A DNA stretch of 64,000 bases from Callorhinchus milii (taxonomy: Eukaryota): contig NW_024704742.1 in the NCBI RefSeq assembly GCF_018977255.1, positions 93,436,001-93,500,000 of the forward strand. The letters are read 5' to 3'. Each line of letters starts with the position of its first letter. Within the stretch, counting starts at the first letter, position 1. Below, piece after piece: positions 4,710 through 64,000 of this stretch. Below the pieces are notes generated by a model. It was not told where the DNA came from, did not search any database, and saw only the letters and a program-made list of their open reading frames with translations. The position numbers and the translations under genes were made by a program.

Positions 4710-4755
4710 ATGGCGGATACCAGCGATCTCCTTAATGCAGCGGAGTTGGTGAAAG
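4710..4755 (+). CDS. CDC14B: CDC14B coding exon 1 ([15 protein letters not shown], phase 1)
   Basis: GGAATGG start context. Donor G|GTGAAG. Joins exon 2 in frame as GAT (D). Resembles short CDC14 N-termini ending in K-DRL. Confidence 0.85.
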
Positions 4756-22700: not shown

Positions 22701-25700
22701 TTATTAATAGAATTGATTATTGGAAGCAAAATGAAAGAAACTGTATGAGGAATAAACGACAGCCAACATAGTTTCAGGAATGGTATGTTTGTCCAACTAA
22801 AGTCACAGACTTTTTGAGGAAATGGTGTCTGAAATTGATAGTGGGAAGCCATATGACTTAGTTTGTCTAGACTACAAAATACTTTGACAGACACCCAAAA
22901 CACATTTGCCTACTATTTTGACTGTAATACTTCACAGTAAAAATACTGTGTAGTGCTTTGAAACAACACAATAAGGCACTATATCAAATGCAAGGATTAT
23001 TAATAGGTGTAATAATTTCTACTTGAGAGTCCCAGTTACAATCTGAGGTCATTGAATAAATAAAACGTGGATGTTAACTAGTAAACATATTCAAGGAATG
23101 AAGCAGTGGATAGTCGGAAGGGGAGCTCGGTGAAAATCGGGAAGATATTAAGTGGAGTGCCACAGCTGTTGGTGATGGGATCACCCCTGTTCTTAGTATA
23201 CATAAATGACCTAGAATCACAGACTATGCGACAGGTAGTTTACTTTGTAGGTGCCATTGCACTAGCTGGAATTGTGGAATCAAGGGAGACAGCCATGATC
23301 TAAAAAGAGAACTTGTATGCATCATGGTTTATTCCTGGTGAAAGGAATTCAGTAAAGATAAATGCAAGCTGCTTGGTGTCAACCTGGCTCAGTGGGTAGC
23401 ATTCTTGCCTCTGAATCACAAGTTGTGGTTTCAAGCCCCACATCTGGACTTTGAGCAATACGGTGTTGAGGGTGCGCTACATTGTCGGGCAGGCATTAAA
23501 GATCTCAAGGCACCATTCAAAAAGACAATTTCTCCCAGTATTTTGGCCAACAGTGCTCCAGATAAAATTGGTCATTTACTTCATGGCTGTTTGTGGGATA
23601 TTGCTGTGGGCAGAAAGGCTAAAGTAAAGGCTCGACTGCTGATGGTGTCATGGGCAGGGTGGGGAACATAAAGCAGGGCGGTCAGGAAGAGGGCATTGGA
23701 AGGGGAGTGCAGAGGAAGCTGCCTTTACAGGTGGCTGTCCTAAACCTGCCCTGGCTCGATGTCGACACTGGATGAATAAAGTGTAAAATGTGTTCAGCAT
23801 TTCCATTTTGAGCGCTTAAAAGCACAAAAGTTCACCACAAATAAAAGTATATATTTTTAAAAGAACAGTTTTTTAAAGAGAGAAAAATAAGGTTGTTGCC
23901 CAGCACCAGTAATTCAGTAGGAATGTCAGCTTAGACTATGAACTCAAGTGCTGTGGTGGAGTTTGCCCCACAGGCAGGAAGCAACAGGTGTTCCAAATAA
24001 TGCCGTGTGTGTGTGTTGTGTGGGATGGGTGAACTAACAGCAGACAAAGGTCATTTCTTTCCAGTACCTATTATATTTTAAAAAAAGGTTTGCTCAATGT
24101 ATCTCCGGAAAATAGAGACTTGTGAATAACACTTTGTTGGATTGATCCAGTGCAGGATAAAGCATTCTGGAGACGCTTTGAAGTACTGACCTTTATACAT
24201 CTGCCAGTTCTTTATGATCCTTTTTTTTAGTAAGAAGTGTTTGCCTTTTTTTATGTCAGTTTTCTCCCCTTATTTTAAGTGTTCAAATTTTTTTAATATC
24301 CTCCAGCTCCCCTCCTTCAGTACTTAAATACCATTTCATAGACACCTTCCTGTCCTTCACACAAGTAGCCATTATTTATGTGTAAGCCATAATAGTAAGC
24401 ATTTCTGTTGGAAAGTTATTCCAACCTGTAGTTGTTTTTTGAGGGGGGAGGGGTAGCAGTCAAGCACATTTCTATTCTTGCCAGATGCTCACACATGCAC
24501 CTTCCAGCACGAGGCTCTGGCTGGTGATCAGGATCCTCCCACCTCCCTTCAGGAGATCCAAGGCCAATTGTAGCAATACAACTGCTGCCTGGTGATCACC
24601 AAACTCAACACTGACCTGCAATATTGTGGTCTGCCTGGTTTGTTGCTCCATTTACCCGCTAGGACATTGGGGGAGTTTGATGCAGTTTCTTTTGTTGAAT
24701 AAAATAGTACATCGAAGAGGTGACAAATATGTATTTCTGTGAGGAAGAGCATGGCTGTTGGACAATGCTCAGTGGTTTGGTTTCAAAACTTAATTCGTGG
24801 AGTCCTGTAGCTCAGTGGTTAGAGCACTCGCTTTGCAAGTGAGAGACCAGAGTTCAATTCCAGGCAGGGCGAAACCTTGGGCAAGTTTCCTTACTCCACA
24901 CGCCTAATAATAATCCCTCCAAAAACAAAAAACAATAATAAATTGGTCATTTTCAATCTACAACTGTTTGTGGGACATTGCTGTGCGCAGTTGGCTGCCG
25001 CGTTCGCCCACAAATATACAGTCAATTCACTTTACAGTGTGTTCTGTGAGGCGCTTTGGGACGTCCTCCCGACGTGAAAAGCGCTATATCAAATGCAAGG
25101 ATTATTATTATTAATCATGGCAGTGGGTTTCCACTTGTGTCATATCTGGTTGCCCAAAATTGAGAAGAAAGGAAGTTACTTTTTTTAAAAAAAGTGCCAG
25201 AAGTGTTTTGGAGCACATAATTAAATTAAACGTTCATTAAAAAAATTGACATCCAAAATGCAAATCAGCTGATTTTTAGGAAAGTTGCAATATTGTGTAC
25301 AGTTCAAATTAACTTTTTAAAATTAAGAACTTGGAGAAACATGTTTAAAGGAAACATAATTATGCTATTTGATGAGGACATTTCCTGTTCACTTTACCAA
25401 TAAACGTCAAGTTTGTTTAAAAACTGCCCGATGGTGTAATAGTGACTAGAGCTTGTGGACTAGGAGCTCACTGGCTCGAATCCTGCTCTGTGCTCAGTTT
25501 TGTGGTCTCGGTCGGCGCTGCATATGTAATAATAATAATCCTTGCATTTGACATAGCGCCTTATCGGGTCTTCTAGACGTCGTAAGGCGCTTCATAGAAT
25601 GTACTGTAAATACAATATAATACAAAATTATAGTTGCATATCATCGTTCACGTCAGGAGGATGTCCTCACGTGAATTGACTGTATATTTGTCGGTAAAAT

Positions 25701-28700
25701 GTGGCAGCAAATTGCGCACAGCCGAGTCCCACAAACGGTCATGGATTAAGTGACCAAACTATTCTTTTTTTGAGGGATTATTATCCCCGGAAAGCCGATC
25801 CACCGATTGACTAACAACTGGGTTCCTACATACAGATGCATGTCGAGTAAGGAAACTTGCCCAACGTTTCACCCTGTAGGAAATTAAACTCAGGTCCTCT
25901 CGCTTGTGCTCTAACCACTGAGCTACAGACTCCACAAACTATAGGACTACATGAGGGGATACAATTAGCCCTGGTTCTCTCAGGGTTTGAGGAGGGTAAA
26001 ACCAGTCAGGATAACCGATCCCTGTTCAGCACCCTCGACTGGTGATGGATGTGTGTGGCAGCCAGGCAAAGAGATGTCAACTCCATCTGCTGACACCCAC
26101 TGCTAAGGGCCACATAAACAATGGCCCCAACCTTGGGCGGGATTGAGCGTAACTAACTCCTGTGGTAACGCGACACAACAAGACCAGGAGCAGAGACATG
26201 TTAGAAAAATAATTGGGCTTTAAAAATCCAAAACAAACTGCTCCCCTGAAAATGCCTTTTTTTATCAAAACAAAAAGTATTTTCATCAGAAGAATAATTC
26301 TGTGATAATCAAAAATGAAGAGTGCAAACTGGAACAAAGGGGATGGAAAATAATCATAACAAGTTAACTCCAAGTGGGTGACTAAAGTAACATTATTGAC
26401 AGTATCAAAGTGGTATGAAGTGTAATAAAGCAATAACATTCTGAAGCGTAATAAAGCAATAAAAAAGCATGGACTCTGTTGATTGATTGTCTCACCCTCC
26501 TACCTCTACCGTTCCTGCCCTCCACACCTCCTGATCCCAACCCCCAGCTCGGATCTAAATCCTTGTCTGTTCAGCAGCTTAGGACGTCTTCCCAACATGA
26601 AAGGCGCTGTACAAATGTAATTTGTTGTTGGTGGTTGATTGCTTAGAACCAGCTCTCTAGAGATCAATGCAGTTATTGCCATCCCTCGTGGGTGGCTTCA
26701 TGCCAAGTGCAGCATGTGTAACAGACATGTATGTACTCTTGTCATTGCGTTCCAGGGATGCTTCATTTGGCACTTGCACGTACAATCTAACAGTTCTGGA
26801 CTGTTTATGCGCAGTGAGCAAGGTAAGAATCCATTCTCTACTATCATTAACTGGGATTCTGTGAATATAGTGAGTAATATGGAATGAAGAAGTCTCGTGA
26901 CCGTGCACTTCATGTTTCCTCCACTGACAATTTTTTCGTCTTGTGCAATGTTCTCAATTACCAAATCAAACACATTTAAAATTTCTTCCCAGGCTTTGCA
27001 GTATGAATTCTTTGATTTCAATACATTTGATGTAGATGAATATGAACATTATGAGGTTAGTAGATTTTTCATGAATTAAGAAAGCACATTATTCAAATCA
27101 TCTTCATTCTCTGCAGTATGGTTGATTGACTGAAGTACTGTAAACCGAAATACTCTTGAGCTTTTTGCTTTTTTTTGTTGTTGCAGAGAGCAGAAAATGG
27201 AGATTTTAACTGGATAATCCCAAGGAAATTCTTAGCCTTTAGTGGGCCACATCCAAAGAGCAAAATAGAAAATGGTAGGTGGTGAAATTGGTTGATATTC
27301 AGTTTAGTGAGGAGATGTGTATTTTACCTTTTGCCAGCGTGCACCTACATTTGGATTGAGATTTGTAAATAATGATTGCAGCCGTAAGACCATTGACCAA
27401 GGCTCCATTTGGCGGGGCAAAGCCCCCAGGCCATTCCTGGTACAGGCCCTTCTTCCCCCTCAGAGACGGCTCTTAAATTTTCTTTTCTGGCACGCAGATT
27501 ACAACTATTACTAAAACTAGTAGAGGAGCTTTCTGAACTTGAAGAGTTTCAATAATGATGGAGTAGTAACATGGCAATTTCAAATAGAGTTCCTTAATTG
27601 ATGAATCTGGAACTGCATCACACCAATTCTCAGGTTTTGGTGGACTTTTGGTTCTTTGGATACGTTTAGGTAGCCTCCTCTTGGATTCCTGAATTAAGAA
27701 ATCCTGTTTGAAATTGCTGTGGTGTGCATGATTTTTTTAAAAATACTTTTTTAAATGTATACTTTGGTATTTAAATATATTTGTTCCACATCAGTTAAAT
27801 GAGAAGCCAATGTACGAAGCCAAGCGAGATAAAAAATAAATTATTAGTGCTGCACTCGACTAGTGGAGTGCTACAAGGATCAGTCCTTGGGCGTCAGCTA
27901 TTTACCATCTGCATCAACGATATTGATGTGGACATTGAAGTTAATTTATCTAAATTCGCGGATGACACAAAACTTGGAGGAAGTGTCAACCCAGAGGACG
28001 ACATTAAAAAAATGCAGCGAAACATAGATAGGATAGGTGATTAGGCAGGTAGGTGGCAGATGAAGTATAATGTAGGGAAGTGCAAAGTCATCCACCTTGG
28101 TAGCAAAAATAGTAGAGCGGGTTATTTTTTAGAAGGGGAGAGATTGGAATATGTTAGCTTCCAGAGGGACTTGGGTGTCCTTGTACACCAATCACAGTAA
28201 GTTAGTCTGCAGGGGCAGCAGCAATTAGGAAGGCGAACGGTATGTTAGTATTCATTATGAAAGGATTAGAGTATAAGAGTAGGGAAGTCTTGCTGCAACT
28301 GTATAGGGCTGTGAGACTGTGAGACCACACCTGGAATACTGTGTCCAGTTTTGGTCTCCTTATTTAAGGAAGGATATACTTGACTTGGAGGGGGTGCAGT
28401 GTAGATTTACTCGGTTAGTACCAGGGATGAAGGGGATGAGTTACGAGGATAGGTTGACCAATTTGGGCCTATATTCTCTAGAATATAGAAGAATTAGAGG
28501 GGATCTTATAGAAACCTATAAGATCATCAAAGGGCATGATAGAGTAGATAGTGGGAGATTGTTTCCCCTGGTTGGAGAAACTAAAACCAGGGGTCACAAC
28601 ATTAAAATCAGAGGCAGCCCTTTCGCACTGAGTTGAGGAAGAACTTCTTCACTCAAAGGGTGGCGAATGTATGGAACTCACTACCCCAAAGGGCTGTTGA

Positions 28701-31700
28701 CGTTCAGTCCTTGAACATATTCAAGACTGAGATAGATAGATTTCTTATTGCAAAAGGGATTAAGGGATATGGGGATAAGGCAGAGTTATGTTATTAGTTG
28801 GAGTTAGATTAGAAGATCAGCCACGATTGAATGGCGGGGCAGGCTCGAAGGGCTGAATGGCCTACTCCTGCTCCTACATGTTATGTTATGTGCACTGCAA
28901 ATCAAGCGCCTTCTTTGTTAACTCCTGGAAATTAAGTTGAGTCCTTTTGATTCATTCAACCAGGTTACCCCCTGCACGCCCCAGAGGCCTACTTTCAATA
29001 CTTCCGAAAGCACACTATCACCACGATTATTCGCTTAAACAAGAAAATGTACGATGCCAAACGGTTCACAGACGCTCGCTTTGAGCACTACGATCTCTTC
29101 TTTGTGGATGGAAGCACGCCCAATGATGCCATCGTGAAAAAGTTCTTGAACATCAGTGAAAATGCGGAAGGAGTCATTGCCATACACTGTAAAGGTATTC
29201 TCTTCAGGTGTATGTGGAAGAGTTGAAAAAACCCGCAAATGGCGTTAGCATTGGTTGTGATGGGACACCATAGGTTGCTTTTCATCAGGGTTTCCCATAT
29301 ACACCATGCGGACAACTCACAAGACCATGGCCCTGGCGTCAATGTGACATGCAGGAGTTTGCGTGCAAACACGTATCTTTCGTGGCACCAACTTTCAAAT
29401 AAATAAATAAATCCTTACATTTGATAATGGAGGCCTTTCATGTCAGGAGGACGTCTCAAAGCACTTCACAGGATTTACAGTAAATTGTGGCAACTGTATA
29501 TTTTGTAGATGAACAAGGCAGCCAATTTGTGGACAGCAGTGTATTGCAAACTGCTGTGAGGCTGTGAAAATATTTTGGTTTAGAAGGAAAATGACTTCGT
29601 TCTTTTTGCAATGTTACAGCCGGTCTTGGCCGAACGGGCACTTTAATAGCCTGTTATATCATGAAGCACTACAAGCTGACAGCAGCAGAGGCCATTGCCT
29701 GGATCAGAATCTGTAGGCCAGGGTCTGTAATAGGACCTCAACAGCACTTTTTGGAAGAGTGAGTATTATAATTTTCCTACTTTCCAGATGCGAAAATATT
29801 TATTTAAAAAAACCTGCTTTAAATACACTTACTCAAGTGTACTTGTGGCTTTCTAATTGTACAATCATGGCCTTTAATGCATGTGCTCAATTTTCCAACC
29901 TCTACTTCCAACAGCAGTGTTATTTATGCGCTTACATTTTATTGTTGTGTTGAGCAGGAAACAAGCTAGTATGTGGGCACAAGGCGATCTTTTCCGTGCC
30001 AAGCTAAAGGAACAGCAGAATGGAAAGGACAAGGTTGGGGTTACAAGGATTCTGTCAGGGGTTGATGATATTTCCATTAATGATAATAAGACAAATGACA
30101 AACCAGAAAATCACATGGTAAGCGATCACTTGATATCCTTAATTCATCCAAAATCATATCATCCAATACTCAGATGTTGCTAATCTGGTTCAATTTCATT
30201 ACATAGAGTACTGCTCTGCGATTAACACCCGACAACAGCCTCCTACACTATTTACGCTGCACCATCGAGCTTGTAGGAAGCTAGAGGTCTCTCATTGTGC
30301 CTTGCAAAATGTGATTGAAATTGTTATAGATAAGTTTATTGGTTTTGTCAAATAATCTGAGCACAGATGCACATTTTGAATGTTTTTTCCGTAAAATGGT
30401 CTATTATTGTTATTTATGATTATTATTAATATTTTAATATATTATTTAATCATAATTAAATGCTGTGTGCAATTGGCAGCCACGTCTCACCCACAAATAT
30501 ACAGTCAATATACTTTAGAGTATATTCTGTGAAGCGCTTTGAGACGTCTAGAAGATGTGAAGAGCGCTATATCAAATACAAGGATTATTATAAGAAGAAT
30601 AACATTCATGCATTTGATATAGCATCTTTCACATCGGGAAGACTTCTCAAAGTACTTCAGATGATTTGCTGTGAAATGCAGTGACCGTATTTTGTAGGCA
30701 AACACAGCACATATTTTGCACATGGCACTGCCCCACAAATAGCTAAGCAGTGAATGACAGCTTTTATTTGGAGGATTGTTGGCCAGGGCCCCGAGAGAAA
30801 TTCACTTCTCATTCACAATACCTCAACACAAAGATGGCACCGTTGACATTGCACTCCACCCCCAGCAATGCATTGGAGTGTTAGCTGAGATTATCTGAGT
30901 TTATAGACTAGACTGACATTCCAGTGCATTGCTGGGATAGTTCTGTATTGAGGTGTCATTCCTTGGATGAGAAGTTAAACTGAAGTCTCTTCAGATGGAT
31001 GTTAAAGATCCTGTGGCTCTTTTTGAAAAGAGACAGTAGTTTGTGGCTGCTTCAGACTTGTATGTATATTTGGTGTGATCCTCTGTAGGTGATCCAGTAT
31101 ATTTCACAGTATGTCTGTATGTTCTAATCAGTTTCTTTTCTTCACCCTCAGTATAATGATGATCACTATCCTAATAAAAACGAGATGACCCAAGGAGATA
31201 AACTTCGAGCCTTGAAGAGCAAAAGACAAGCTAGAGCCGCGACTACCGGTTCAATTAAGTGAGTAACGCTGCGAAACCTTAACAAAAACTATACTTTTTT
31301 TAAAAAAAGCTGTATGTTATTTGTGGTGAACGTTTGTTCTTTTAAACACACAAAATGGAAATGCTGAGGAGCTGAACACATTTTCCACTTTATTCACCGT
31401 CGAGCCAGGGCACGTTAAGGACAGTCACCTGTAAAGACAGCTTTCTCTGCGCTCCCCTTCCAATACAACAACAACAACAACTTGCATTTATATAGTACCC
31501 TTCACGCAGGGTTTGGTCCCGGAGCGCTTGACATTGGCGGAGTCTGACAATGAGGGAGCGGGGGTGACTGTAAGCATGATCAAAAAGGAAGGTCTTTAGA
31601 TGGGATTTGAAGGTGGGGAGGGAGGGGCAAAGTGGAGGGATTGAGGGAGATAGTTCCAGAGTTGCAGAGCATAGTGGCTGAAGGCATGGCCACCAAACAG

Positions 31701-43700: not shown

Positions 43701-46700
43701 CTGGCCTTGTGGATTTTTAACCATCATTTGTTAAAATCTATTTTGTTTTCTCTCTTTAACTGCCACCGTCAAATCCCAAACTTAGTCACACTCTTGTCTC
43801 TCGATTTTTATCTTTCAACCAAATATTTGCTGAGATTAGCCCTTGGTTTCTTTATGTAACAGAAATTCCTCCGAGCCAGAACCTGTGAGACAACTTTCTT
43901 TTGGAACTTACAAATGCGCAGAATTATGGGAAAATCTGAAATTCAGAAGCCAGCGTTTATCACGTTGCTTTACTTCACCCCTTTTCAGACTTTTATCAAT
44001 TCTAAAATTAGAGGTTTGATTTCTCATTGTATCAAGCTGCACATTCTCTGATCAGAAATGTACTTGCCTAATAAGTGCTAAAGTGTTGCCCACTAAATCT
44101 CGCATTATTTGTTGTAGGTTGGAAGAAAACAAAATACACACTAGATCATCATCCCAGGCGGTTAGGTAGGTGTCTGCCCTTTTGTCATGGAGCATTATTG
44201 TTTATAATAGTGAACAGTACATGATTTATTGTGTTGCAAAGTATCCTTTTGAGTCAAGCTGACGCTATTAAACAGTGGATTGGCTTCAGATGTTAGGTCC
44301 CAGGGTTAAAGCCTGGGACCTAGGTTGTGTATTTGAGGACCTATGAGTCCTTGGACTTGTATCCCAGTAATGCACTCCGTGAAAATGCACAAGATGGTAG
44401 GAAGCCATTTGGCCGTTTTTTTGTGTGACAATCAACTCCTGGAAGGGCAATCTCACAATTGATTTACATTGTAAGTTGCATAAAGATTTTACTTGATACA
44501 GTAATTGCCTCCATGAACTAAAGCAATTCAAAAATACCACATGAGTTGTGTCCATTAAACATGATCTTTGTGTTGGGTAATCAATTTAATTTTTGATTCT
44601 TTTTAGACTGGAATAGCATAAAATCTGATTATTTGTTAATGTAAAGCTTCTCAGTCTGTGATCATTTTAAATGTGAGTTTTTCTGTTTTATGCTCCTTTT
44701 CAACTGCAAATCAATGTACTTAAACCCCAGTAGGATAATCCTGGAGTCCAGTGCACAGAGCGCCAAGACCTCTCTTAAGCCATCTGCTGTTCCTGGCGTG
44801 GGTCTGACAGGCAGTACCAAGAGGACAACAAGGTCCATGGCAGCCAACAGTAGTTTAAGGAGGTAAGTTGCAATCACAAATTATACCCCTCCATTGTTTA
44901 AAAGGCAGCCTGATCTATTCCAGCCTTTAACATTGACTGGCTGGGATAGCCGTCATTGTGAACTTTTTAGACAATCAAATACTTTCCTTTTTTACAAAAA
45001 AACCCTCAAATGGCTATTCTTCATCATTTTGACTCTAATGATTGAAGACTTGAAAAGCAGTCTCCTCCTCCCCCTCAGGTTTTCTTGGTTAATCTGGAAA
45101 GACTGGGCGAGTATGGGAAGAGTAAACCAGAACTTACTGAATTCTATGAAAGAAATGGTTGACCCCATGCAGTGTTAAACTTAATAAGCTGGCTCTAGTC
45201 TTGCACACTGAATGGAATAAGCTACACTGTTACAAAGGCCTGAAATTCCACTGAGTATTAGCCTGGAATTAAAATTGTCTTAAAATTTAAGGTTCTGCAG
45301 AATTGTGGAAGTTTCTTTGTAAGAAGATTGTAAGATAACATTTTTATTAAAAGAACTTCTGAATTTCAGATTTTCGCACAATTCTGCACATTTGTAAGTT
45401 CGAAAAGAAAATGTTCTCACAGGTTCTGGCTGGGAGGAATTTCTGGCCTCTGATCTGATAAATTGGGTTTTAAAAATGTCATTATTTGCAACGAGATTGT
45501 TAAATATTGAGTCCTGCTGGTAACCAAATATGCATCATACACTAACTCCACTCCAATGTACACGTAAGTAGTTTACAGAGCAGAGTTCTACTATCTCAAT
45601 TCACAGAGGAGAGGCCAGGGTGATGTATATCCGGTTACCGGCAAGATTCAGCATTTACAAAATCTTTTGCAATTCATATTGGTGAATACCTCCTTTTAAA
45701 CCCCACTGAGAACATTTTAGAAACCTGATGGGAACAAAGGCTACAATGCTGCAGTTGCTGCTGATCAGCATCAAATTCCTGCTAAATTTTATGCAGCTGA
45801 ACAAGCTTATCCTATTTTCAATAAGAGGGTGTTCATTAATTGATGTCTACTGTAATGCAAGGCTTTGATATGTATCTGAAACTATATGAAACATTGCTTC
45901 CTACAGATTGCTTGAAACAACCTACTCTGATCAAAATCTATAGCAAATGCATGTTATGTAGATTTATATATTTAAGAATGTTAATTCATTTTATGGGACC
46001 TTGTTTGAAATCCTTACTCTGCTAGATCAGAACGAGAAGTCTGCATTTACAGGCAGGAGTAGAGATGTACTTATACTTAATTGCTTGGTTGCAAAAGCAC
46101 AACAGCTAGCAGCTTAATTGGCAATTTCCCAAATTGTACAACCGAAGACCTTTGCAAAAACTGAGACTGTAAATCCAGTGTTGTGGATTGTGGAGTAATG
46201 TTCTCATAGCATCCTTATTAAAAACTTACATGGGGGTGGAAAATGACGATCGGAGCATTTTATCCTTTACATTTTAGTGCAACAAAGTGTGTGCTTTTTG
46301 CACTTTTGTTTTTTTTAAAAAAAAACTGCACTGGAGTATGTGAATTCTAAACTGAATAGTGTGTACACATTCAGTATGGAGTTGTCAGAATATTAGGGTT
46401 CTGGGAGGAAAGGTAACAAATCTCTAACCTCTTATGATATTTTTATATAACATACTTCTGGATTAGAATGCAAATATCTTGACAATCCAATAATAGAACT
46501 ATACTAATTTGAGTATTTTCCTCTCCCCTGCCCCGAAAAAAAATCTTACCTTTCCTTCTCTTCAGAAGTCAGTCAAATATGCCTCGCCCGAGTGGCTGTT
46601 TGTCATGTGTGAGTCTAGATGGTGGTGATGTTTAATGTTGGGGTGTATCACAGCCAAAGTGAATCCATATATCACTTGATGTTCACCCCACACATTTTCC

Positions 46701-49700
46701 ATCAGGAACAAACACCATGAGGGAGTGGTGGAGAAGAGAGTGGAGCTCGATTTGCCCTCTTAATGTAAAATGGGTGTCGATATTTAGTATAGCCAGGAAG
46801 GTGTGAGCAAAGCCGTTAGATATAACGGGTCTGCAGGAACCAGTTTGAATGAAAATGAGTAAGAATTGGGAAAAGTTGATGGTAGATGGCAGCTATGTGA
46901 CCGATCATTGGACTTATCTGTTATAACATTATGCCTTTGCAACGGATATTTGGTACAGTAAAGATGTCAGCAGTTCCGAGTATGTTACTATGCACTGTGA
47001 TTTTTTTNCTGGACTGCCATTAGATGAGACCTTATACCATTAGTTATCTTCATTTCAGTGTGTGTGCGTGCCTTTAACATTCCTTTATATACTGGGCAGT
47101 CCTGAGGCACGCAAGTATACAGCATTTACTTGGTGCCTGCAGTCAGAAATGTGAAAAGCATTCAAGTGTATCCATTTCGGAAAAGCAAAGGGCAGTCAAG
47201 GCCAACAGAGGTTATTCTATGAGGCTTGACAGATATTGACGAAGAATACCAAAGTCTACTTACATAAAACTATCATTTGAGGAAAGGAATAGATTTACTT
47301 GGAATTCAATTGTCCACTCTCTGAGCGAATCATGGCATTTTCTTCAAATTAGTATCTATTAATCTGGATGGCTTCTTTCTCCCAGCCCCTACACTTCCCG
47401 CATCTTTTCCCAAATTTTCCACTACTATCTTATCTATAAGCTGTACCCGTCATCAGTAGCAGGGAAAACTATTGCTTGATTTCACTTGCGGGTGTGTGTG
47501 TATGTGTATATATATATATATATATGATGTGTATATATAATAAAAGATACTCTAAGCTTTTACAACTACTTTTCAAAAAGAAGCAAAGAAAGGGTAAAAT
47601 ACAAATGAAACATGAAAAAGGCTGATTATATTTGTTAATTCTCATTTGGTTTTGATGGGTTGAAGGATGAGAGTAGCTGCTGAGAGTGGCATTAGCCAAG
47701 ATTGGATAAGCATCCGATAAAAGTCCATGTCTACAGCAGAGGTGGCAGAAAGTTGATACGATCGTAATGAACCTTTAAGGCATAAATGGGCCATATTCCA
47801 GTAGGTTGTGTGTTTTTTCTGCAATTTGGACTGCAGTCTATTCCCTTGAACACATCAGCTAAATAGAAGTGTAAACTGGGCATTTCTTTTCACTGAGATT
47901 TTTGTGAAACTAATGGTTGAATAGGAGATAAAATATATATAATTCTTGCATTTGATGCATAGATGCGTCCTTCCAGGGAGAGAGCGGCATTCCATTCCCA
48001 CAATCTATCTCTAGACTTCCCATGTGCATGCAAATCTCAGCTTGGTTTGGATACTCTTAAGCACGATGATGGGTTTCTGCATATGTCAAACTCCTTGGTG
48101 ACCCCAAAAAGGGAATAGGTGACAATGGGGACTAAACTGCGGGATTCCTTAATAAGGACTTTTGAATCGTGCAAACGGGAAGCCCTTAAATAATGGATGG
48201 TCCGTCACAATAGAGAGGTTCCTCATCAAGGAAGCTACTTAGAAATCCTGCATTTTACACCCAAATAAATAATGCACTTTTATCATTTTACTGATCTGTC
48301 CTTTTAAATACCTGCAGTTATGATGCTAACACGTGTGAAGTTTTTCACAAAAAGTTAATGGAATTGAGGGAAGCTAATGTGGCAGTAATGTATAAAACAC
48401 AGAAAGGTGTATTTATTTTGTTGAGGTGAAAGCTGACCTGTCTTACGATTGTTTTTCCCTTTGACATACAGCCACCCCCTAAACCCTAGGCTAGCCAGTT
48501 CACTGGGCAACTTGCATGCATTGACTAGTGACAAGGACGCAGCCCAGACGAGTGATGCAAACTCAGGTGCTAGAGCCCAGAGTTATTCTGTCACCCAGCT
48601 GAATAACTCAAACGTTATAAACAACAACAGCCACTCCTCCTCACGAAGAAGGGCTGCAGATAACGGCACCAGCGTCAGTCCGTATGCAGTACGGAATTTA
48701 AGCCACTCTCATCCAGTAAGTGCCAACCTCTCATCTCGATCCGTATCCCACTTTGAATCAATTCAGAACCACATTTGAGTTTGGAAATTGCTTTAAATGG
48801 TAAATGGTGTGCCTCTAATGGTAACTTTGGGAGGGGGGAGGGGGACACAATTAATCTACTACTTGACTGGATTTAAATGAAGGATTTACACAATTCATTA
48901 TGGTATAATGCACAACCACAATGTCCTCGCTGATCAATGCTAAATAAATGCTTTTAATTTCTGAAGAGTGGATATCGCCTGCTAAGTCGGTGTGAGTGTC
49001 CTGCCTGCATCTAATACCAATATCTCATGTTTTGCAAATGCTGCACCTCCTTGCTGAAAATAGAGCCATAGACATTTACAACACCGAGGAAAACCATTTG
49101 GTTCTTTTAAGAGCAATATTTTCAGCCCTTTCCTGGGAGGCATGTAGGAATGCCTCCGAATTTCTAAGAAACAACTTCTGTGCAAATATGTGTGTCGAAT
49201 TAATGTTTCTCTTTCTTCTAATCTGAGGCACACCTGCTGTTGCTTCACACCAAAGGAATACAGCTGGTGTGATTTCACCAACTCAACCTGTACATTTTTA
49301 CTTAGTCAGCTGCTGCTGCTGTTAGCACTACACAATAGCACCTCAATGTAATGGAGTCATTTACAGTTATGAGGTCGGCCCTGAAAATGTTACCTCTGAT
49401 CACGAGCTTAGTTTGGTTCAATCTCTGTTCTGTCTGGCCAAGCTTGTATAGGGCAAAGTCAATAATTCCATTAAAGCCTCTGCTGTCATTGCGATGCTCT
49501 TATTTATCCTAGCCTAAAATATCTTTCATGTTGTAGTAGCAGAAGCTTGTACATCAGCTGACCTACTTGGCAGAAAATCCTACATTTCATTCACGAGGAT
49601 ACAAACTACTGGAAGTGCCTATGCTGTCTCTTGTTTTATTTTCCAACGGTTTGCTTTCAGCTTCAACCTCTGATTAACCAGAAATGCTTTTGTTGTCTCT

Positions 49701-51704
49701 TTCCATTTCTCCGCTCTTTCACACAGTTTGATTCCTGAGAGAGGGAGAAAAACCCGGAGCACTTTATATGAAACGCGCTTAGGGCGAATATGGTACTTTT
49801 ACTGTTCTGCTTTTTCATTTTCCCTGTGTTTTTTTTATATTTTAAAAATATAAATGTTAGCTAGCAGCACAAACACATTACTACCGATTCCAATCCTGAA
49901 GATGTTGTGGTATAGTGTTGTCCTACAGCAACTAAGTATTCAATTTAATTTCTATATTAAGATTTTAGAGTGCCATAGAATGTAGGTGATGCATTACTAA
50001 ATGGAAACAGTGTATAAGGGGGTCATAGTAAGTAGTAGCAGCAAAGGAACAGGAGGAGGATATTGAACCCATCATGCCAGATCTTTTTATCGCATAGTTT
50101 GCCCCCAAAATACACACTGTCACACCTGCCTATATTCTCCTGAGAAGTATTTTCTAATCTCTCTCACTTTAGCCTCTTCTAATTTGAAGACTATGTCCCC
50201 TTGTTTTGGATCCCTTTGCCAATGTGAAGAGTCACTCGACAAACAGATTTTTTTTATAAACACTTTTTTTCCTCCTGAAAGCACTGATTTGCACTTGTAC
50301 TGCACCCAAATGATCGTACTTAACGTTTCAGCAGAGCCAACTGAATGTCAGAAAGGAGAAAGGAAATCCGAATTAGTCAATCCTCAGCCCTCACTGCTCA
50401 ACTTCACTATTAATGATGGTTTGGGATAGGACATCATCTGACTCATTCAACGGAATAGATATCACATAGATCGCAAATGTAGCCTCACTCCCTTTCTGTA
50501 GGCTTTTTCCAGACACTTTAGGAAATGCAGAAAAACCTCCTCTCTGAATTTCCTACTGTTGCTACTTTCTATTTTCAAATCAACTTCCTTTGGAGCATAC
50601 AAGGCCAATTTCATAAATCACTCACTGGGCTAATTTGCAAATATTAAACCTAATACTTAAAAAGACACGAAAAACTTATCTGTAGCCGGTGGCACTTTGA
50701 GTATCAGTGTTGTTTGCCTGCATTGAATCCTGTGTAGTTTTACCCCCCCATGCATGTTATCAGTTTGAACAGTGGTTGTTGACATGAGGTTTATATTTTT
50801 TGCTGAAACCTGAAGCAAATTAAATCGTAAAGCTGCATGACTAAGTTTATCTATTGGGGTCTGTGCTTGTCCACCTAATGAGCAGATTTAGCAAATTGCT
50901 GTGATTTTGAGCTAATTGCTTTTTTGGGACAGCATCCCATATTTTCATAATTGAATTTCTGGTCATTCCTGTCTTGCTAATGTGCTTCAGCCAGTGTACT
51001 GTTAACTGTGTAATACATTGGGAATCAGAGCCAGCAACCCTCATTTTGTTTTAAGTTTGAAGATGACAAATCTCTCCCTGGCCAACTGTCTCCTCACCCC
51101 AAGCAGAGTTCAGCTAATTGAGCACAAAGTGGGGGATTGAACTTGGGCCTTTCTTGGCTTGCATGACTTCATGCTACTTTATTTGGTATGTGTGTATGTA
51201 TTTGTGGTTTTATGCATACACTCACGCAGCAGAACCATGTTGTAAAGTGCTTCAGTATAACATAGGTTCGCCAATAGGTTGTGGTGTGAACCCTGTCTTT
51301 ATTTATCCATAAAAATCCACACTAGACGTTCACCCTTTTGGCTTCCCCCAAGCACTGGCTCATGTTTTGTCTTTCTGCCTGCTTTTGCAGTGAATGTGGA
51401 AGTGCTGATTGGCCATTGATTGTATGTAGCCTTGATATTTGAAGGAGAGACATTTTCTGTTAAATTCTAGATTTTGTGCAACTTGCACACCTAAAAAAAA
51501 ATTGGCGCTTTTTTTAAGATGTTAATTTTTTGTTGGTGGTTCTGCTTCTTGTGTAATGGCCTATGTACTTTTGCATGACAGTTTTTTTTAATTCTGTTGC
51601 ACCTTTTACTAAAATATGTAATTTTGGCAGATTTGCTTAATTTTTGTTTCTGATTTTATTCAAGTCACTCCACACTCCACACTAGAGTACCATTACTCCG
51701 CTAA
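4710..51704 (+). CDS. CDC14B: Dual-specificity protein phosphatase CDC14B, whole coding span. 12 core exons plus alternative 3' exons; predicted isoforms of about 425-573 aa.
   Basis: Manually spliced GT-AG exons with consistent phases translate to [28 protein letters not shown]...[14 protein letters not shown]...[21 protein letters not shown]...[12 protein letters not shown] rather than A is supported by tail-to-tail adjacency to HABP4 (as in human), the [20 protein letters not shown] exon and the hydrophobic tail exon. Confidence 0.9.
4760..5330. repeat. G-rich minisatellite (about 17-19 bp, GGGGGTCCCGGGGAG) in CDC14B intron 1
   Basis: About 30 visible units, starting immediately after the exon 1 donor. 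Confidence 0.95.
5734..5824 (+). CDS. CDC14B: CDC14B exon 2 ([31 protein letters not shown])
   Basis: tttcag acceptor, AA|GTGAGT donor, 91 nt, conserved CDC14 A-domain motif. Confidence 0.97.
6321..6396 (+). CDS. CDC14B: CDC14B exon 3 ([25 protein letters not shown])
   Basis: ttctag acceptor, AAG|GTAAAT donor, hallmark [10 protein letters not shown]. Confidence 0.97.
9720..9965 (+). mobile_element. L2 3' UTR fragment
   Basis: PTLWNSIP motif and GCGCTTTGGGACGTCCTCCCAACGTGAAAGGCGC tail. Confidence 0.8.
10995..11392 (+). mobile_element. L2 LINE 3' fragment
   Basis: Closely similar to 2348-2730 (CACAGATTTCCCATCACACAGAGGATACAG...) with an L2 tail. Confidence 0.85.
12466..12588 (-). mobile_element. 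Penelope-like element terminal fragment with a hammerhead-like core
   Basis: The + strand reads CTGCAGATGCTGGAAATCTG...CAGGTCAGGCAGCATCT...AACGTTTCGGGTC..CCCTTCGTCAG, a repeat type recalled as common in sharks. Confidence 0.65.
12872..12964 (+). CDS. CDC14B: CDC14B exon 4 ([31 protein letters not shown])
   Basis: ttacag acceptor, TCG|GTAAGT donor, 93 nt in frame. Confidence 0.96.
13025..13398 (-). mobile_element. tRNA-SINE, longer-body subfamily
   Basis: Same head and tail as 24799, plus an internal segment shared with the copies at 25530, 56030 and 58875. Confidence 0.88.
13903..14365 (-). mobile_element. L2 LINE 3' fragment
   Basis: [50 protein letters not shown] plus tail. Confidence 0.88.
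14372..14638 (-). mobile_element. 5'-truncated tRNA-SINE next to the L2 fragment
   Basis: Matches the 24799 family. Confidence 0.85.
21137..21213 (+). CDS. CDC14B: CDC14B exon 5 ([26 protein letters not shown])
   Basis: ctcaag acceptor, AG|GTAATT donor, 77 nt. Confidence 0.96.
22262..22560 (+). mobile_element. tRNA-SINE fragment with a duplicated 3' tail
   Basis: Two successive ...AAATGCAAGGATTATTATT tails. Confidence 0.85.
24799..25113 (+). mobile_element. Full-length tRNA-derived SINE with L2-type 3' tail
   Basis: A box TAGCTCAGTGG (24808), B box GTTCAATTCC (24852), 3' stem-loop shared with L2, (ATT)n end. Confidence 0.92.
25530..25932 (-). mobile_element. tRNA-SINE, longer-body subfamily
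   Basis: Head ...ACCACTGAGCTACAGACTCC and tail AATAATCCTTGCATTTG on the + strand. Confidence 0.85.
26756..26822 (+). CDS. CDC14B: CDC14B exon 6 ([22 protein letters not shown])
   Basis: ttccag acceptor, AAG|GTAAGA donor, 67 nt. Confidence 0.96.
26993..27055 (+). CDS. CDC14B: CDC14B exon 7 ([21 protein letters not shown])
   Basis: tcccag acceptor, GAG|GTTAGT donor, 63 nt, acidic EYEHYE linker. Confidence 0.96.
27187..27274 (+). CDS. CDC14B: CDC14B exon 8 ([30 protein letters not shown])
   Basis: ttgcag acceptor, G|GTAGGT donor, 88 nt. Confidence 0.96.
27858..28890 (+). mobile_element. 5'-truncated CR1 LINE with stop codons, in CDC14B intron 8
   Basis: [43 protein letters not shown]. Tail GGCCTACTCCTGCTCCTA..ATGTTATGTTATG. 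Confidence 0.92.
28964..29194 (+). CDS. CDC14B: CDC14B exon 9 ([16 protein letters not shown]...[12 protein letters not shown]...VIAIHCK)
   Basis: aaccag acceptor, AAG|GTATTC donor, 231 nt. Contains the general-acid Asp loop (DGSTP) and the catalytic HC. Confidence 0.97.
29620..29758 (+). CDS. CDC14B: CDC14B exon 10 ([47 protein letters not shown])
   Basis: ttacag acceptor, GA|GTGAGT donor, 139 nt. Completes the CX5R P-loop. Confidence 0.97.
29958..30117 (+). CDS. CDC14B: CDC14B exon 11 ([17 protein letters not shown]...[26 protein letters not shown]), includes an NES-like segment
   Basis: gagcag acceptor, ATG|GTAAGC donor, 160 nt. Confidence 0.95.
31152..31258 (+). CDS. CDC14B: CDC14B exon 12 ([35 protein letters not shown])
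   Basis: cctcag acceptor, AA|GTGAGT donor (phase 2), conserved TQGDxLRALKS. Confidence 0.95.
31466..32200 (-). mobile_element. Internally deleted L2 LINE fragment
   Basis: [26 protein letters not shown] on the - strand, with an L2-type tail near 31470. Confidence 0.85.
37445..37902 (-). mobile_element. Older tRNA-Deu SINE (DeuSINE-like) with L2 tail; related fragments at about 7875-8120, 16640-16985, 20380-20690, 23375-23610 and 53890-54145
   Basis: The - strand has a tRNA-like head, then a Deu-domain-like GGATGAGATGGTAAACCGAGG..CAGGTGGATGTTAAAGATTCC, then the L2 tail. Confidence 0.7.
38460..38725 (+). mobile_element. L2 3' fragment
   Basis: TTCAAAGCCCTCCATG... to GTGAAAGGTGCTATACAAATGTAATTTGTTG. 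Confidence 0.75.
39138..39249 (+). CDS. CDC14B: CDC14B alternative terminal exon encoding a hydrophobic tail ([37 protein letters not shown])
   Basis: Strong polypyrimidine acceptor cttttttcctcttctag. In frame with the phase-2 exon 12 donor. Resembles the recalled mammalian Cdc14b tail (...LAVLTSALCSVxIWWIVC...LLFCLDG). Confidence 0.8.
41110..41232. repeat. 123-bp near-perfect palindrome (61-bp arms, 3 mismatches, 1-nt centre)
   Basis: TACACAGGCATTGCCTAAGAATG...CATTCTTAGGCAATGCCTGTGTA, read directly. Confidence 0.95.
42186..42530 (-). mobile_element. L2 3' fragment
   Basis: Reverse complement of the L2 3' end seen at 2400-2730. Confidence 0.8.
44118..44165 (+). CDS. CDC14B: CDC14B exon 13, 48 nt ([17 protein letters not shown])
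   Basis: ttgtag acceptor, AG|GTAGGT donor, phase 2-2. Similar to the recalled CDC14A segment SDDTKGHPRAVSQPFR. Confidence 0.8.
44734..44862 (+). CDS. CDC14B: CDC14B exon 14 ([43 protein letters not shown]); alternative acceptor at 44731
   Basis: CAGTAG tandem acceptor, AG|GTAAGT donor, phase 2-2. Similar to the recalled human CDC14B VILQSSVQSCKTS...TKRTTRS. Confidence 0.88.
45236..45449. mobile_element. MITE-like element with terminal inverted repeats AGGCC(T/A)GAAATTCC
   Basis: AGGCCTGAAATTCC at 45236 and GGAATTTCTGGCCT ending at 45449. A partial inverted copy lies at 43860-43949. Confidence 0.65.
48472..48778 (+). CDS. CDC14B: CDC14A-like exon 15 ([22 protein letters not shown]...NLSHSHP). 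Internal donor at 48715, or read-through [20 protein letters not shown].
   Basis: atacag acceptor in frame after exon 14. RLASSLGNL motif as in CDC14A. CCA|GTAAGT donor at 48715/48716. AATAAA at 48943-48948. Confidence 0.82.
48943..48948 (+). terminator. Candidate polyadenylation signal for the exon-15 read-through isoform
   Basis: AATAAA about 165 nt after the TGA at 48776-48778. Confidence 0.4.
51665..51704 (+). CDS. CDC14B: CDC14B last exon, coding part: (S)[12 protein letters not shown] from a phase-2 donor, or SLHTPH* (stop at 51685) from a phase-0 donor
   Basis: ttttattcaag acceptor. Ends in LR* like the recalled human CDC14B SLSISRTKTVLR*. Followed by about 2 kb of AT-rich UTR-like sequence with few recognisable repeats. 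Confidence 0.72.
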
Positions 51705-53754
51705 AATGGCATCTGAATCGACAGCTTGGAGGATTTGGAAAGAAAACCGGAGGACTGGATTTCCTCTCCCCTCTTTTTTCCCCATAAACAATATACTGTA
51801 TGCTGAATTGGGACTTCACCATTCCTTCACCACAGGACTCTGCACCTGAATTCCTGCTTTTGATTGATGCTATTTCCGTGTGAAGTGCTGTTATTCAGAA
51901 GGTTGTATTATTGACTGCATTATTCTTAATTCAAAGAATCATTGAGTAGGGCATAGTGGTGATGATTGATCGTCTACAGGCACCCATAACCTGCTGAATT
52001 GAAGACAGTTTTTAAAAATAAAAGGCCTGAAGGAACATTTTGAAGCTTTTAAACAAAAAAGTGAAAACTTGCATTGTCAATCTCCCTTTGTTTTCGATTG
52101 TATCTGAGCTCAGTGGTAGCAGTCAGTCCTTTAACACCATCTTATGGCCAAAATATGATAGTACAGTACATATAAAGTTACCTTAGATGGCATGAAATGA
52201 ATCTTAGCAAATTGGTTTGGCGGCATTCAATGTAACATATGTTAACTCATAATTCTTCAATTAATTGCCTTTCTCCTACCTCCTCCCTTCTGGTTCACAG
52301 AAACCTTCCCAGGGATAATTGTACTAACCAATCACGCCTTGCTGTATTTCTGCATTGGAATGTATATTTGAGAACCCATTGAGTTATTTTTATCAGCTGG
52401 AGCACTATTTTAGGTGGTTAATGCTGTAGTTGTGTAGAAAGAGCACTGTGTGATCTTGTCTTGCAAGGGATATTTTTTGCAATCAGTGCAAAATCAGTGA
52501 AAAGGAACAATCCCTGCCTTGCTTCTGTTAAACGCCCATTTGTGACTGATTCAGCTCTCAAAACTAAATGTCCCTTCACACCCTGAATTACAAGAGAAAA
52601 CTGCCACCAGTAAGTAAAAACAATCCTGAACTCCTGCTCAGCCCATCTATATTGCTTTCAAAAATATGTATGTTTTTATATATATGTTTTTTGTAAAAGC
52701 TTAATTTTTTTTTAAATCATGCAGTCACAACACACAATATTTCAGGATATATTTCTAGCTTATTTCTTGAGTTTAACATTTTCCGTTACAAAATAACTGG
52801 TGCAGAATCCTTTTTTGTTTAATGCATTGAAGAAATTGCATTAAGAAATTGAAGTGGCTGAATTAAGAGCTGGAACGATCATCAGTGATCCTTTATCTGA
52901 AATGTATATGGTTGTTTGTAAAGTACAAATTTTAAAGCAACACGTCCTTATAAATCAGTCACCAAGAAGATTTGTGTTCTACTACCAAGTTGTGTAGTAA
53001 GACATTAAGACATTGCCAACATTAGTACTGGTTTCTGTAGAATAGATATGGTCTAACTATAACAAAAAAAATTAACCCAAATTGGGGTGCAAGGATAATA
53101 TTTTTGTATGCATGATCAAATTGTATTTTACGAGTCTGTTGATTTTGCAGTGAATGTCTTCTGGAATAGACTTGGTGTAGCTGCAACAATAACCTTTGTG
53201 GCTTGGAAATGTAGTCTGTTTGGCATAGCCAAAAACCCTTTTTTTGTAACTTGTTACAGAAAATAAGCTTATCTTTTTATGTCTTTTATATCTATTTATT
53301 GCTCTCAAATTGAAAATATTAGCCATAGAGTGATAACATGAAGAATTGTACGAAACGGTCCAAGATGCTTGGAAAATGTTTGTTTCCACAACCCTCAGTT
53401 TGATTTTGAACACTTCATTCAGCCTCTTCTTAAACCAGACTCTCATACTTCTGCTTACTGCAGTGTGTGTATGTCTGCGACTTTTTTTCACTGGCAAATT
53501 TGATTTTCCAGTATAAACTTTTCCCTCTTAATTTTACTTTTATTTGGGTGAAGGGCATTTTTAAACTTCAGAAACTCATATTTCTCTATGGTATATAATT
53601 TGTATAAATTTGAACTGTTATTACATAATCATCCCTGAAACGGGGAAGTTTTTTTTTAAAAAACTGGTTGCAATGTTTGTGTGGAACTGATATATACTTA
53701 TTTTGTATAGATATGTATGTAGAACATAACCATACTGATTTTTTTATGACCAGA

Positions 53755-53760
53755 AATAAA
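53755..53760 (+). terminator. Candidate CDC14B distal polyadenylation signal (AATAAA)
   Basis: AATAAA at the end of the AT-rich UTR-like region, with T/GT-rich sequence downstream and SINE remnants resuming near 53890. Confidence 0.55.
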
Positions 53761-55077
53761 AGTATGATAACCATTTCCATTTATTGATTACAAGTGCATT
53801 TCTTAAAAGATTTATTCCTACTGTATTCAAAATAATTTGACACCAGTTTCGTGTTGACAATGTGTGTATTTTGTTGGCTTTCAGGCTAACAATCCTTGCA
53901 TTTTGATATAGCACTTTTCACGTCTAGAGAACATTTCAAAAGTTATGAAGTATAGTGTATTTTGCAGGCAAACATTGCAGCCAAAATATGCACAGCAATA
54001 TCCCACAAACAGCTATGATGTTAATGCTCAATTTTATCTGGGTGGGGGTTGTTGACAGGGAGAAACTCTCTTTTGAGTAGTAATGCTCTGGGATCTTGAA
54101 CGTCCATTTGAACAGGCAGCCAGGCATTGGTTTAACATCTCATCTAATAGGTTTATAATTAGCCCTGTTTACTGGTCTTGCAAATGATATGGCTATTTTA
54201 AAAATATTTATTTGGTTCCAGATAAAGCCAATATGGATTCTGCCTCGATCATCACTCACAGCAGGCATTTCCATATCCTAATTATTGTGTGAATAAATTC
54301 CCCCTAATTCCCTGATGGCCTCTAGTTACTGACTCACCAATCAATGACAATTTCTCCTTATTAACTATCAAAACACCTCATAGTTTGAAAGACCTCCAAA
54401 TCAGCTAATCCTGCAACCTTTGTTCCATCAGCACAAGTTTCTCCAATCTGCTCATAAGTCAAACCACTCATCCCCAGTATTATCCTAGTAAATCTCTGCA
54501 CTCTATTGCCTAAACTGGGGTAACTAAACAGGTGAATGGACACAGTCTTGGTCTAACAATTTTAGCAATACTTCTGGTTTTATTTTCTATACCCCATTTG
54601 TAAAACCGAGCATGTCATTTTGAGAAGTTGCAATTAACACAAAAAATCTGGTTTACAAATTGCCCCTTAACTGGCATTGGAATATCAAAGAGTGCACGTT
54701 TGATAGGGGCAAAAGTGCTTTGAAATAGGGAAAATCCCCAAATGGAAGTTTTAGACTGGGTGAAGAGTATGAGAGACAATTTCAGTCATGAGGTCCCTGT
54801 GCATACAAGGATTCAGATAAAATATTCTTTGAAATTGATATAAAAAGGCCTAACAAGAAATTCAGTCCTACGTTTTTTTAAGTCTGATAAACTGAAATGA
54901 TCTATAACTTATAATAAAAAATAATCTTACATTTGATGTAGCACCTTATGTTTGAGACATCTCAAAGCACTTCACAAGATATACTGTAAATATTGCATAT
55001 TTTGTGGATGAAAACTTTGGTTGTTTAATGATACTTTAAAAAAAGAATGAAAAATTAACTGCTTCAACAAATCTGCA

Positions 55078-62262: not shown

Positions 62263-64000
62263 AGACACTTGAGTGACAGAGATCAGTACCTGGGGGGAGA
62301 GACACTGTGAGTGACAGAGATCAGTACTCTGGGGGAGAGACACTGTGAGTGACAGAGTCAGTACCCTGGGGGAGAGACACTATGAGTGACAGAGATCAGT
62401 ACCCTGGGGGAGAGACACTGTGAGTGACAGAGATCAGTACCTGGGGGAGAGACACGGTGAGTGACAGAGATCAGTACCCTGGGGTGAGCGACACTATGAG
62501 TGACAGACATCAGTACCCTGGGGGGAGAGACACTATGTGTGACACAGAGCTCAGTACCCTGAGGGGAGAGACACTATGAGTGACAGAGATCAGTACCCTG
62601 GGGTGAGAGACACTATGAGTGACAGAGATCAGTACCCTGGGGGAGAGACACTATGAGTGACAAAGATCAGTACTCTGGGGGGAGAGACACTATGAGTGAC
62701 AGAGCTCGGTACCCTGGGGGAGAAACACTATGAGTGACAGAGATCAGTACTCCTGGGGGAGAGACACTATGAGTGACAGAGATCAGTACCCTGGGGGAGA
62801 GACACTATGTGTGACAGAGCTCAGTACCTGGGGGAGAGACACTATGAGTGACAGAGATCAGTACCCTGGGGGAGAGACACTGTGAGCGACACAAGAGCTC
62901 AGTACCCTGGGGGAGAGACACTGTGAGTGACAGAGATCAGTACCCTGGGGGAGAGACACTGTGAGTGACAGAGATCAGTACCCTGGGGGGAGAGACACTA
63001 TGAGTGACAGAGATCAGTACCCTGGGGGAGAGACACTGTGAGTGACAGAGATCAGTACTCTGGGGGGAGAGACACTGTGAGTGACAGAGATCAGTACCTG
63101 GGGGAGAGACACTGTGAGTGACAAGGATCAGTACCCTGGGGGAGAGACACTATGAGTGACAGAGATCAGTACCCTGGGGGGAGAGACACTATGAGTGACA
63201 GAGATCAGTACCTGGGGGGAGAGACACTATGTGAGTGACAGAGATCAGTACCCTGGGGGAGAGACACTGTGAGTGACAGAGATCAGTACCCTGGGGGAGA
63301 GACACTATGTGTGACAGAGATCAGTACCCTGGGGGAGAGACACTATGTGTGACACAGAGCTCAGTACCCAGGGGGAGAGACACTATGTGTGACACAGAGC
63401 TCAGTACCCAGGGGGAGAGACACTGTGTGTGACACAGAGCTCAGTACCCTGGGGGAGAGACACTGTGAGTGACAGAGATCAGTACCCTGGGGGAGAGAAC
63501 TATGAGTGACAGAGCTCAGTACCCTGGGGGGAGAGACACTATGAGTGACACAGAGCTCAGTACCCTGGGCGAGAGACACGATGTGTGACAGAGCTCAGTA
63601 CCCTGGAGGGAGAGACACTGTGAGTGACAGAGATCAGTACCTGGGGGAGAGACACTATGAGTGACAGAGCTCAGTACCCTGGGGGAGACACTGTGTGTGA
63701 CAGAGCTCAGTACCCTGGGGGGAGAGACACAGTGTGTGACACAGAGCTCAGTACCCTGGGGGGAGAGACACTATGTGTGACAGAGCTCAGTACTCTGGGG
63801 GGAGAGACACTGTGTGTGACACAGAGCTCAGTACCCTGGGGTGAGAGACACTGTGAGTGACACAGAGATCAGTACCCTGGGGGAGAGACACTATGATGAC
63901 ACAGAGCTCAGTACCCTGAGGGGAGAGACACTATGTATGACACAGAGCTCAGTACCCTGGGGGAGAGACACTATGAGTGACAGAGATCAGTACCCTGGGG
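62263..64000. repeat. Minisatellite with a unit of about 38-42 bp (GAGAGACACTATGAGTGACAGAGATCAGTACCCTGGGG) in a HABP4 intron; runs off the window
   Basis: More than 40 visible tandem copies. Confidence 0.97.

Follow-up and report, generated by a model that had tools for sequence, protein, structure and literature searches.

The stretch of DNA studied here, called the window below, covers 64,000 nucleotides (nt) of Callorhinchus milii (contig NW_024704742.1, positions 93,436,001 to 93,500,000). According to the exon translations, its plus strand contains a complete CDC14 gene with tandem phosphatase domains and the active site HCKAGLGRTG; Pfam PF14671 and PF00782 are found on the identical record P0001. 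What the window contains is an ordinary C. milii CDC14B orthologue rather than an undivided ancestor. This is indicated by the tree grouping (support 99/99 for an 11-row CDC14B set including the window gene, in a 23-row tree), by the separate CDC14A locus of the species on contig C5, and by a neighbouring gene of the HABP4 family. The 244-nt exon of the gene is identical (100%) to record P0001, and the sources name that cluster C. milii CDC14B. The subject of this report is the last exon, which is read in two frames depending on the inclusion or skipping of the 244-nt exon, and which gives either a CDC14A-like (A-type) or a CDC14B-like (B-type) tail.

Two frames of the CDC14B last exon

The acceptor at 51665 (..ttttattcaag/TCACTC) agrees with the preliminary description of this DNA, in which one last exon was proposed to serve both termini. 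Two donors of different phase are joined to it. Entered from the phase-0 donor at 48715, at the end of the 244-nt exon, the last exon is read in frame 0; entered from the phase-2 donor at 44862, with the 244-nt exon skipped, it is read in frame +1 (Table 1). Nucleotides 51686-51704 are 3' untranslated region (3'UTR) for the frame-0 isoform and coding for the +1 isoform. Because both stops (ends 51685 and 51704) are located within the last exon, no nonsense-mediated decay (NMD) is expected.

Logan assembled contigs from four of 14 listed runs, belonging to two studies, were placed on positions 43900-53300 of the window. The RNA status of the runs is guessed (none is recorded as RNA), but the contigs carry GT..AG joints. 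Runs X1 and X2, two of the four, each contain both 44862-to-51665 and 48715-to-51665, so the acceptor is not restricted to a single donor. The contig depth, which is a contig mean and neither an isoform ratio nor a measure of expression, is 99.3 (X1) and 38.5 (X2) for 44862-to-51665, and 119.2 (X1) and 14.4 (X2) for 48715-to-51665. In run X5, from the second study, an 11-nt loose end at 51665 equals the end of the 48715 exon. Whether the 244-nt exon is included or skipped decides in which frame the last exon is read.

A direct join from 31258 to 51665, also proposed earlier, is not seen. The 31258 end is joined to 44118 in all four runs, and none of the loose ends shown at 51665 matches the end of the 31258 exon (23 further loose ends exist, and this donor lies outside 43900-53300). 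Equivalent joins are known from relatives (P0370; P0206 takes the next donor). The phase-2 donor at 44165 can be added to the donors named earlier. A true last exon elsewhere is ruled out for these isoforms by the joints to 51665, although other terminal exons do exist. Beyond the joints to 51665, the contigs run through the 3'UTR without splicing as far as the 43900-53300 stretch extends.

Both tail proteins are already deposited as C. milii records. Among 15 listed of 22 database records of the window gene, five have the frame-0 tail and four the +1 tail. The predicted tryptic ends of the two tails are NLSHSHPSLHTPH versus SHSTLHTR and VPLLR.

A second two-frame cassette, of 66 nt, is located upstream of the last exon and is an addition to the preliminary description. 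Its phase-2 entry is seen in run X3, where a single 2942-nt contig contains the joints 44165-to-44731, 44862-to-49727 and 49792-to-51665. The join 48715-to-49727, which leads to FDS and a stop 54 nt ahead of the exon junction, is not seen in the four runs examined. Coelacanth, bichir and reedfish have a matching exon of 63 or 66 nt; when it is followed by the last exon, one sequence can encode both frames for 27-28 codons. For the coelacanth cassette (63 nt) with its last exon, this applies to 28 of 28 codons.

The duplication of CACTCCA noted earlier inside the last exon is real. It is a period-7 repeat of about 2.6 copies at 51666-51683 on the plus strand, and a comparable repeat is seen in 261 of 100000 shuffles and in 5 of 1449 window tiles. 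The repeat also accounts for the presence of LHT in the two frames alike. As the origin of the two frames it is ruled out, both by the length of all nine distinct CDC14B +1 tails (12 residues) and by the two-frame exon of the repeat-less CDC14A. The repeat is a local, species-level and incidental feature.

The coordinates of the gene are collected in Table 1. Its first exon (4710-4755) has a CDC14A-like start, and the basic MKRK.. start of other isoforms is not found within the window. Both starts occur among shark, bichir and coelacanth CDC14B records, which indicates that the N terminus is switchable, too. Tandem repeats, C/T-rich and G-rich, lie on either side of this exon at 3550-4390 and 4760-5330. 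The tandem acceptor CAGTAG at 44729-44734 accounts for a difference of one Ser between records P0003 and P0005, and the contigs used 44731. A PDB search with the exon 44732-44863 gave no match. The intron upstream of the 244-nt exon contains a high-copy repeat at 47940-48090, where the very high contig depth comes from other loci.

Two further exon-like segments are seen on the plus strand, neither of them in the 15 listed C. milii records. One is a candidate open cassette exon of 159 nt at 33851-34009, 71% like an exon of two Heptranchias isoforms. The other is a hydrophobic alternative terminal exon at 39130-39243, 61-75% like the tails of squirrel, reedfish and coelacanth CDC14B records, which could encode a membrane-anchored isoform. 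Tail to tail with CDC14B, exons of the HABP4-family gene occupy 57542-58647 on the minus strand, with a PF04774 match at 58513-58623 on the same strand. In human, too, CDC14B has HABP4 as its neighbour. A second HABP4-family match is located about 1 Mb from CDC14A on contig C5, as expected for duplicated chromosome blocks. A tandem repeat at 62350-63900 produces long repetitive open frames on both strands.

Table 1. Features of the C. milii CDC14B gene in the window
Feature	Position	Strand	Remarks
CDC14B coding exons 1-11	4710..30117	+	Start MADTSD..; tandem phosphatase domains; HCKAGLGRTG site split at 29194/29620
Exon with 10-residue helix stretch	31152..31258	+	Common to both tail isoforms; phase-2 donor
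48-nt exon, phase 2-2	44118..44165	+	Phase-2 donor at 44165, joined to 44731 in run X3; encodes a 16-residue region
Phase 2-2 exon	44731..44862	+	Tandem acceptor 44731/44734; donor feeds long, 66-nt or last exon
244-nt (3n+1) cassette exon, frame switch	48472..48715	+	Phase 2 in, phase 0 out; homologous to long penultimate exon of CDC14A
66-nt two-frame cassette	49727..49792	+	Phase-2 entry: LIPERG..RI(C), in run X3; entry from 48715: FDS and stop, database model only
Last exon, dual-coded part	51665..51685	+	Frame 0: SLHTPH and stop (A-type tail), stop 51683-51685; records P0003, P0004, P0009 and joint 48715-to-51665
Last exon, frame +1	51665..51704	+	(S) and 12-residue B-type tail, stop ends 51704; records P0007, P0010, P0012 and joint 44862-to-51665
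Shared 3'UTR	51705..53773	+	AATAAA at 53755 fits 2108-2109-nt contigs starting at 51665; 3' end inferred

Tails of CDC14A and CDC14B in vertebrates and invertebrates

The CDC14A locus of C. milii has the same exon chain and phases as CDC14B. Its last exon reads SLQSEHVQY in frame 0 and HCSLSMFSTNLR in frame +1, each followed by a stop, and the +1 stop is at base 40 in the last exons of both genes. The 40-mer alignment of the two last exons scores 24, compared with a shuffle mean of 2.2, and none of 5000 shuffles reaches this score. Based on the homology of exon and phases, the two-frame switch is almost certainly older than the A/B duplication. The junction contigs, the homologous CDC14A exon with its equal phases and the co-encoded isoform pairs described below bear out the earlier proposal that one ancestral exon supplies the A-type tail in one frame and the B-type tail in the other, with the 244-nt exon as the selector.

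The comparison of relatives is at the protein level and covers records of vertebrates other than human and mouse and of invertebrates. In bony vertebrates, annotated short forms of CDC14A with an end like PFSLNMFSTKALLLR are known from coelacanth, bichir, sturgeon, bowfin, teleosts, a caecilian, lizards, turtle, crocodile and birds. Same-species tail pairs of CDC14A or CDC14B isoforms were taken from 18 hand-chosen species, and in 17 of them, the snail Littorina included, one sequence can encode both tails in frames 0 and +1; the background of such co-encoding is 0 to 17 of 38234 windows. The long and short isoforms differ by 94-103 residues in four CDC14A pairs.

A partition of the frames between the paralogues, frame 0 to CDC14A and +1 to CDC14B, stands as a matter of weight. 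It is not clean, and both frames are seen in both genes: +1 isoforms of CDC14A in many bony vertebrates, and frame 0 of CDC14B in many fishes. Frame 0 is nearly fixed in CDC14A, where 81 of 92 pattern matches are identical. Among the CDC14B frame-0 tails, 14 distinct ones of 4-6 residues are seen after removal of three false pattern matches, and some CDC14B long models stop before the last exon (P0017 and P0023). Skates and rays have no long form among 15 records. In neognath bird CDC14A (P0243-P0328), many long forms continue differently beyond the long exon and the +1 tails end in W, which suggests that the switch was rewired in birds.

The +1 stop is placed exactly seven residues from the T overlapping the frame-0 stop in 29 of the 34 distinct +1 tails. 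L at -2 is found in 22 of these 29 tails, and a terminal R also in 22. Four records (P0335, P0308, P0405 and P0423) were set aside from the pattern set, being not vertebrate last-exon tails or apparently spurious. With the commonest CDC14A frame-0 tail fixed, the +1 positions that allow 4-6 residues are P (19/19), F (19/19), L (18/19) and F (19/19), while the two-option +1 positions 3, 5 and 8 vary, with both options used. The 19-tail set leaves out four teleost-like +1 tails, which are not co-encodable with the commonest CDC14A tail. Conservation of T-K was rejected as proof of selection on frame +1. The segment read only in +1 is 3'UTR in the long form and yet keeps its stop position; in CDC14A, its residues and stop persist from bichir to lizards. 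Signs of this kind, seen at the protein level in a sample biased by its queries, lean towards selection on both frames.

A hidden Markov model search gave 150 representatives, and ten of them were looked at more closely. In Littorina saxatilis, long isoforms end with TRASYTNY and short ones with (R)PVPHTRTTKPTLIR, diverging at the same place of the tail as in vertebrates. The two tails are co-encodable at 9/9, which is seen in none of 38234 windows and in 10 of 20000 shuffles. The last five residues and stop fit the vertebrate profile with P ~5e-5, for features picked after seeing the data. The L-I-R end of the short tail, the frame offset and the stop spacing are as in vertebrates. The brachiopod Lingula and one lamprey isoform have nine-residue S-L-x-S..Y tails like CDC14A frame 0. 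Among the other invertebrate representatives inspected, no +1-type end was found. Judged from the one snail pair, the switch is probably older than the mollusc-vertebrate (protostome-deuterostome) split.

Proposed function and rival explanations

Very probably, the last exon is an ancient two-frame exon whose two readings are the A and B tails, reweighted after duplication and perhaps altering targeting. Inclusion of the long 3n+1 exon would give a long protein with the frame-0 tail. Its skipping would give a protein 50-103 residues shorter, with a basic, hydrophobic +1 tail of the T-K/R-x-x-L-L-R type. The switch could be considered as a trade in which some 80 disordered residues and the frame-0 tail are given up for an end that is short, basic and hydrophobic. 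After the duplication, both genes would have kept the switch with different weights, CDC14A with frame 0 nearly fixed, CDC14B with +1 kept and frame 0 drifting.

Catalysis is expected to be unchanged, because both isoforms share the phosphatase domains and a conserved 10-residue stretch. This stretch is taken to be the stimulatory helix of PMC11407943. The information in the swapped tail, for targeting or partner binding, would set where the phosphatase acts. Such a swap is the most likely effect of the switch, with chances that are about even. Human splice variants of CDC14B with different 3' ends differ in whether they locate to the nucleus or to microtubules (PMC2422853), and CDC14A without its tail shifts to the nucleus (PMC12796106).

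Several points weigh against this explanation. The cited localisation work deals with other exons or loss of the whole tail, not with a swap of frames, and the support for both tails comes from RNA-type joints and database records, not from the protein level. The relatives are mostly predicted isoforms, collected with the tails as queries, and the lineages are not independent. One of the 18 tail pairs, from a tortoise whose long record has a different extended end, is not co-encodable. T-K/N in frame +1 is no evidence by itself, because Tyr-TAA in frame 0 dictates it. Among the 11 cluster records of C. milii CDC14A, the +1 isoform is absent, and the +1 tail of this gene is three residues shorter after T. 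No mammalian +1 CDC14A record is present among 120 listed of 263 matches, nor among the few mammal records fetched. The six human CDC14A RefSeq lengths in Table S1 of PMC12796106 include no form of the expected short size, since none falls between 383 and 565 residues. The bilaterian case consists of one snail species, with protein records and no genomic DNA. By eye, only three of the first 92 representative tails have a +1-type end, all of them fish-like, and a pattern for this end has one match over all 150 representatives.

The single invertebrate pair could also mean that the switch is real but of vertebrate-stem origin, the snail pattern being convergence or chance. The Littorina frame-0 tail is unlike the vertebrate one save for its length and final Tyr, snail and vertebrate tails align poorly outside a few motifs, and rotifer records have a different pair of ends. 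The snail nevertheless shares the position of the switch in the protein, the frame offset, the stop spacing and the L-I-R end with vertebrates, and the S-L-x-S..Y tails of brachiopod and lamprey resemble CDC14A frame 0; a vertebrate-stem origin is rather unlikely. It is very unlikely that only one frame per gene is functional and that the other is tolerated splicing noise, with conservation due to splice signals, RNA elements and frame overlap. Penultimate exons of non-triplet length are commonly skipped, with escape from NMD (PMC7392665), dual-coding regions are a frequent by-product of splicing (bioRxiv 10.64898/2026.02.24.707805), and the variable frame-0 tails and early-ending long models of CDC14B, as well as the skates and rays, would fit. 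Noise does not agree with the substantial contig depth of both joints in X1 and X2, the +1-only residues and stop kept in CDC14A within what is 3'UTR of the long form, the degenerate +1 positions fixed on one residue, or the 63/66-nt exon and last exon open in both frames over 27-28 codons.

Two other roles for the tails are weaker rivals of a change in targeting or partners. The +1 tail might mainly be a degradation signal of the Arg/C-degron type (CRL2-FEM1), so that skipping of the long exon gives a short-lived phosphatase. A terminal R is found in 25 of the 34 distinct +1 tails, 13 of them with L at -3, the snail and the window gene included; FEM1 proteins bind terminal Arg and upstream hydrophobic residues (PMC9098119), and frameshifted 3'UTR tails often destabilise proteins (PMC7392665). 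The nine tails with another last residue (H or W in birds and several teleosts) still keep the stop position, however, and the destabilising tails of PMC7392665 are long and proline-rich, while the CDC14 +1 tail is short. This role is unlikely. Self-regulation of the long form only, by docking of P-S-L across the long-exon/last-exon junction on the PxL pocket of the enzyme itself, is highly unlikely. P/S-L is present in the window gene, bichir CDC14B and nearly all CDC14A long forms compared, and yeast Cdc14 has a conserved pocket to which PxL motifs bind (PMC13637742, citing Kataria 2018). The P/S-L sequence is absent from teleost CDC14B, lamprey, brachiopod and snail tails, and PxL is dispensable for three fission-yeast partners (PMC13637742).

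The two-frame exon can be extended to a fuller picture: a bilaterian-old switch, both tails selected for more than half a billion years, outputs split unevenly by the vertebrate genome duplication, and possibly an overlooked B-like short isoform of mammalian CDC14A. This picture is tentative, with a likelihood slightly short of even.

The C-terminal tails of CDC14A and CDC14B are commonly taken as unrelated disordered regions. One exon read in two frames explains why the A and B ends look different, and offers exact isoform swaps that can be tested. If the snail case is true, this dual-coding exon is conserved far deeper than the cases of the mammal-wide or nematode surveys. Frames, not exons, would then have been shared out between gene duplicates. 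Truncations of the CDC14A tail cause deafness (PMC12796106); a mammalian CDC14A short isoform, if true, would matter for interpreting deafness and infertility variants in the tail.

Comparison with known systems

Skipping of a penultimate exon with a shift of frame, and regions that code in two frames, are both well-known classes (PMC7392665; PMC13247117; bioRxiv 10.64898/2026.02.24.707805). The CDC14 switch is similar to them: the last exon is read according to a penultimate exon of 3n+1 length, it contains both stops, and the tails are disordered. The surveys cover mammals or C. elegans, and their U2af26 example is without sequence conservation. In contrast, both short CDC14 tails are conserved in sequence and in stop spacing, in jawed vertebrates as well as in a mollusc and in two paralogues. 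At 21 nt, or up to about 84 nt when the cassette is counted in, the CDC14 overlap falls short of the size cut-offs of two surveys. CDC14 is not named in the main texts of the three papers, and the supplement of PMC7392665 contains only another mouse Cdc14b exon. The open literature, searched without subscription journals and without the supplements of PMC13247117 and the bioRxiv survey, gave no description of a CDC14 exon used in two frames.

The human CDC14B variants B1, B2, B3 and Bpar (PMC2422853), like the isoforms of the window gene, have alternative 3' ends, which change location in human. They differ in being based on alternative exons rather than on one exon in two frames, and the available text of that paper draws no link to the CDC14A tail. 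The window exon at about 39130-39243 is similar to the hydrophobic terminal exon of the squirrel CDC14B record. Automatic RefSeq and UniProt isoforms (XP_007898176.2, XP_007898180.2, V9KF79 and V9KU58; XP_014346269.1; XP_070194626.1/XP_070194628.1) already contain both tails in many species. These records are silent on the shared exon and on homology across paralogues and phyla.

In yeasts, the products of one ancestral spliced gene have reportedly been partitioned between the gene duplicates SKI7 and HBS1. Unlike that case, the CDC14 products are frames of one exon, and their partition is partial, with both duplicates making both products in many lineages.

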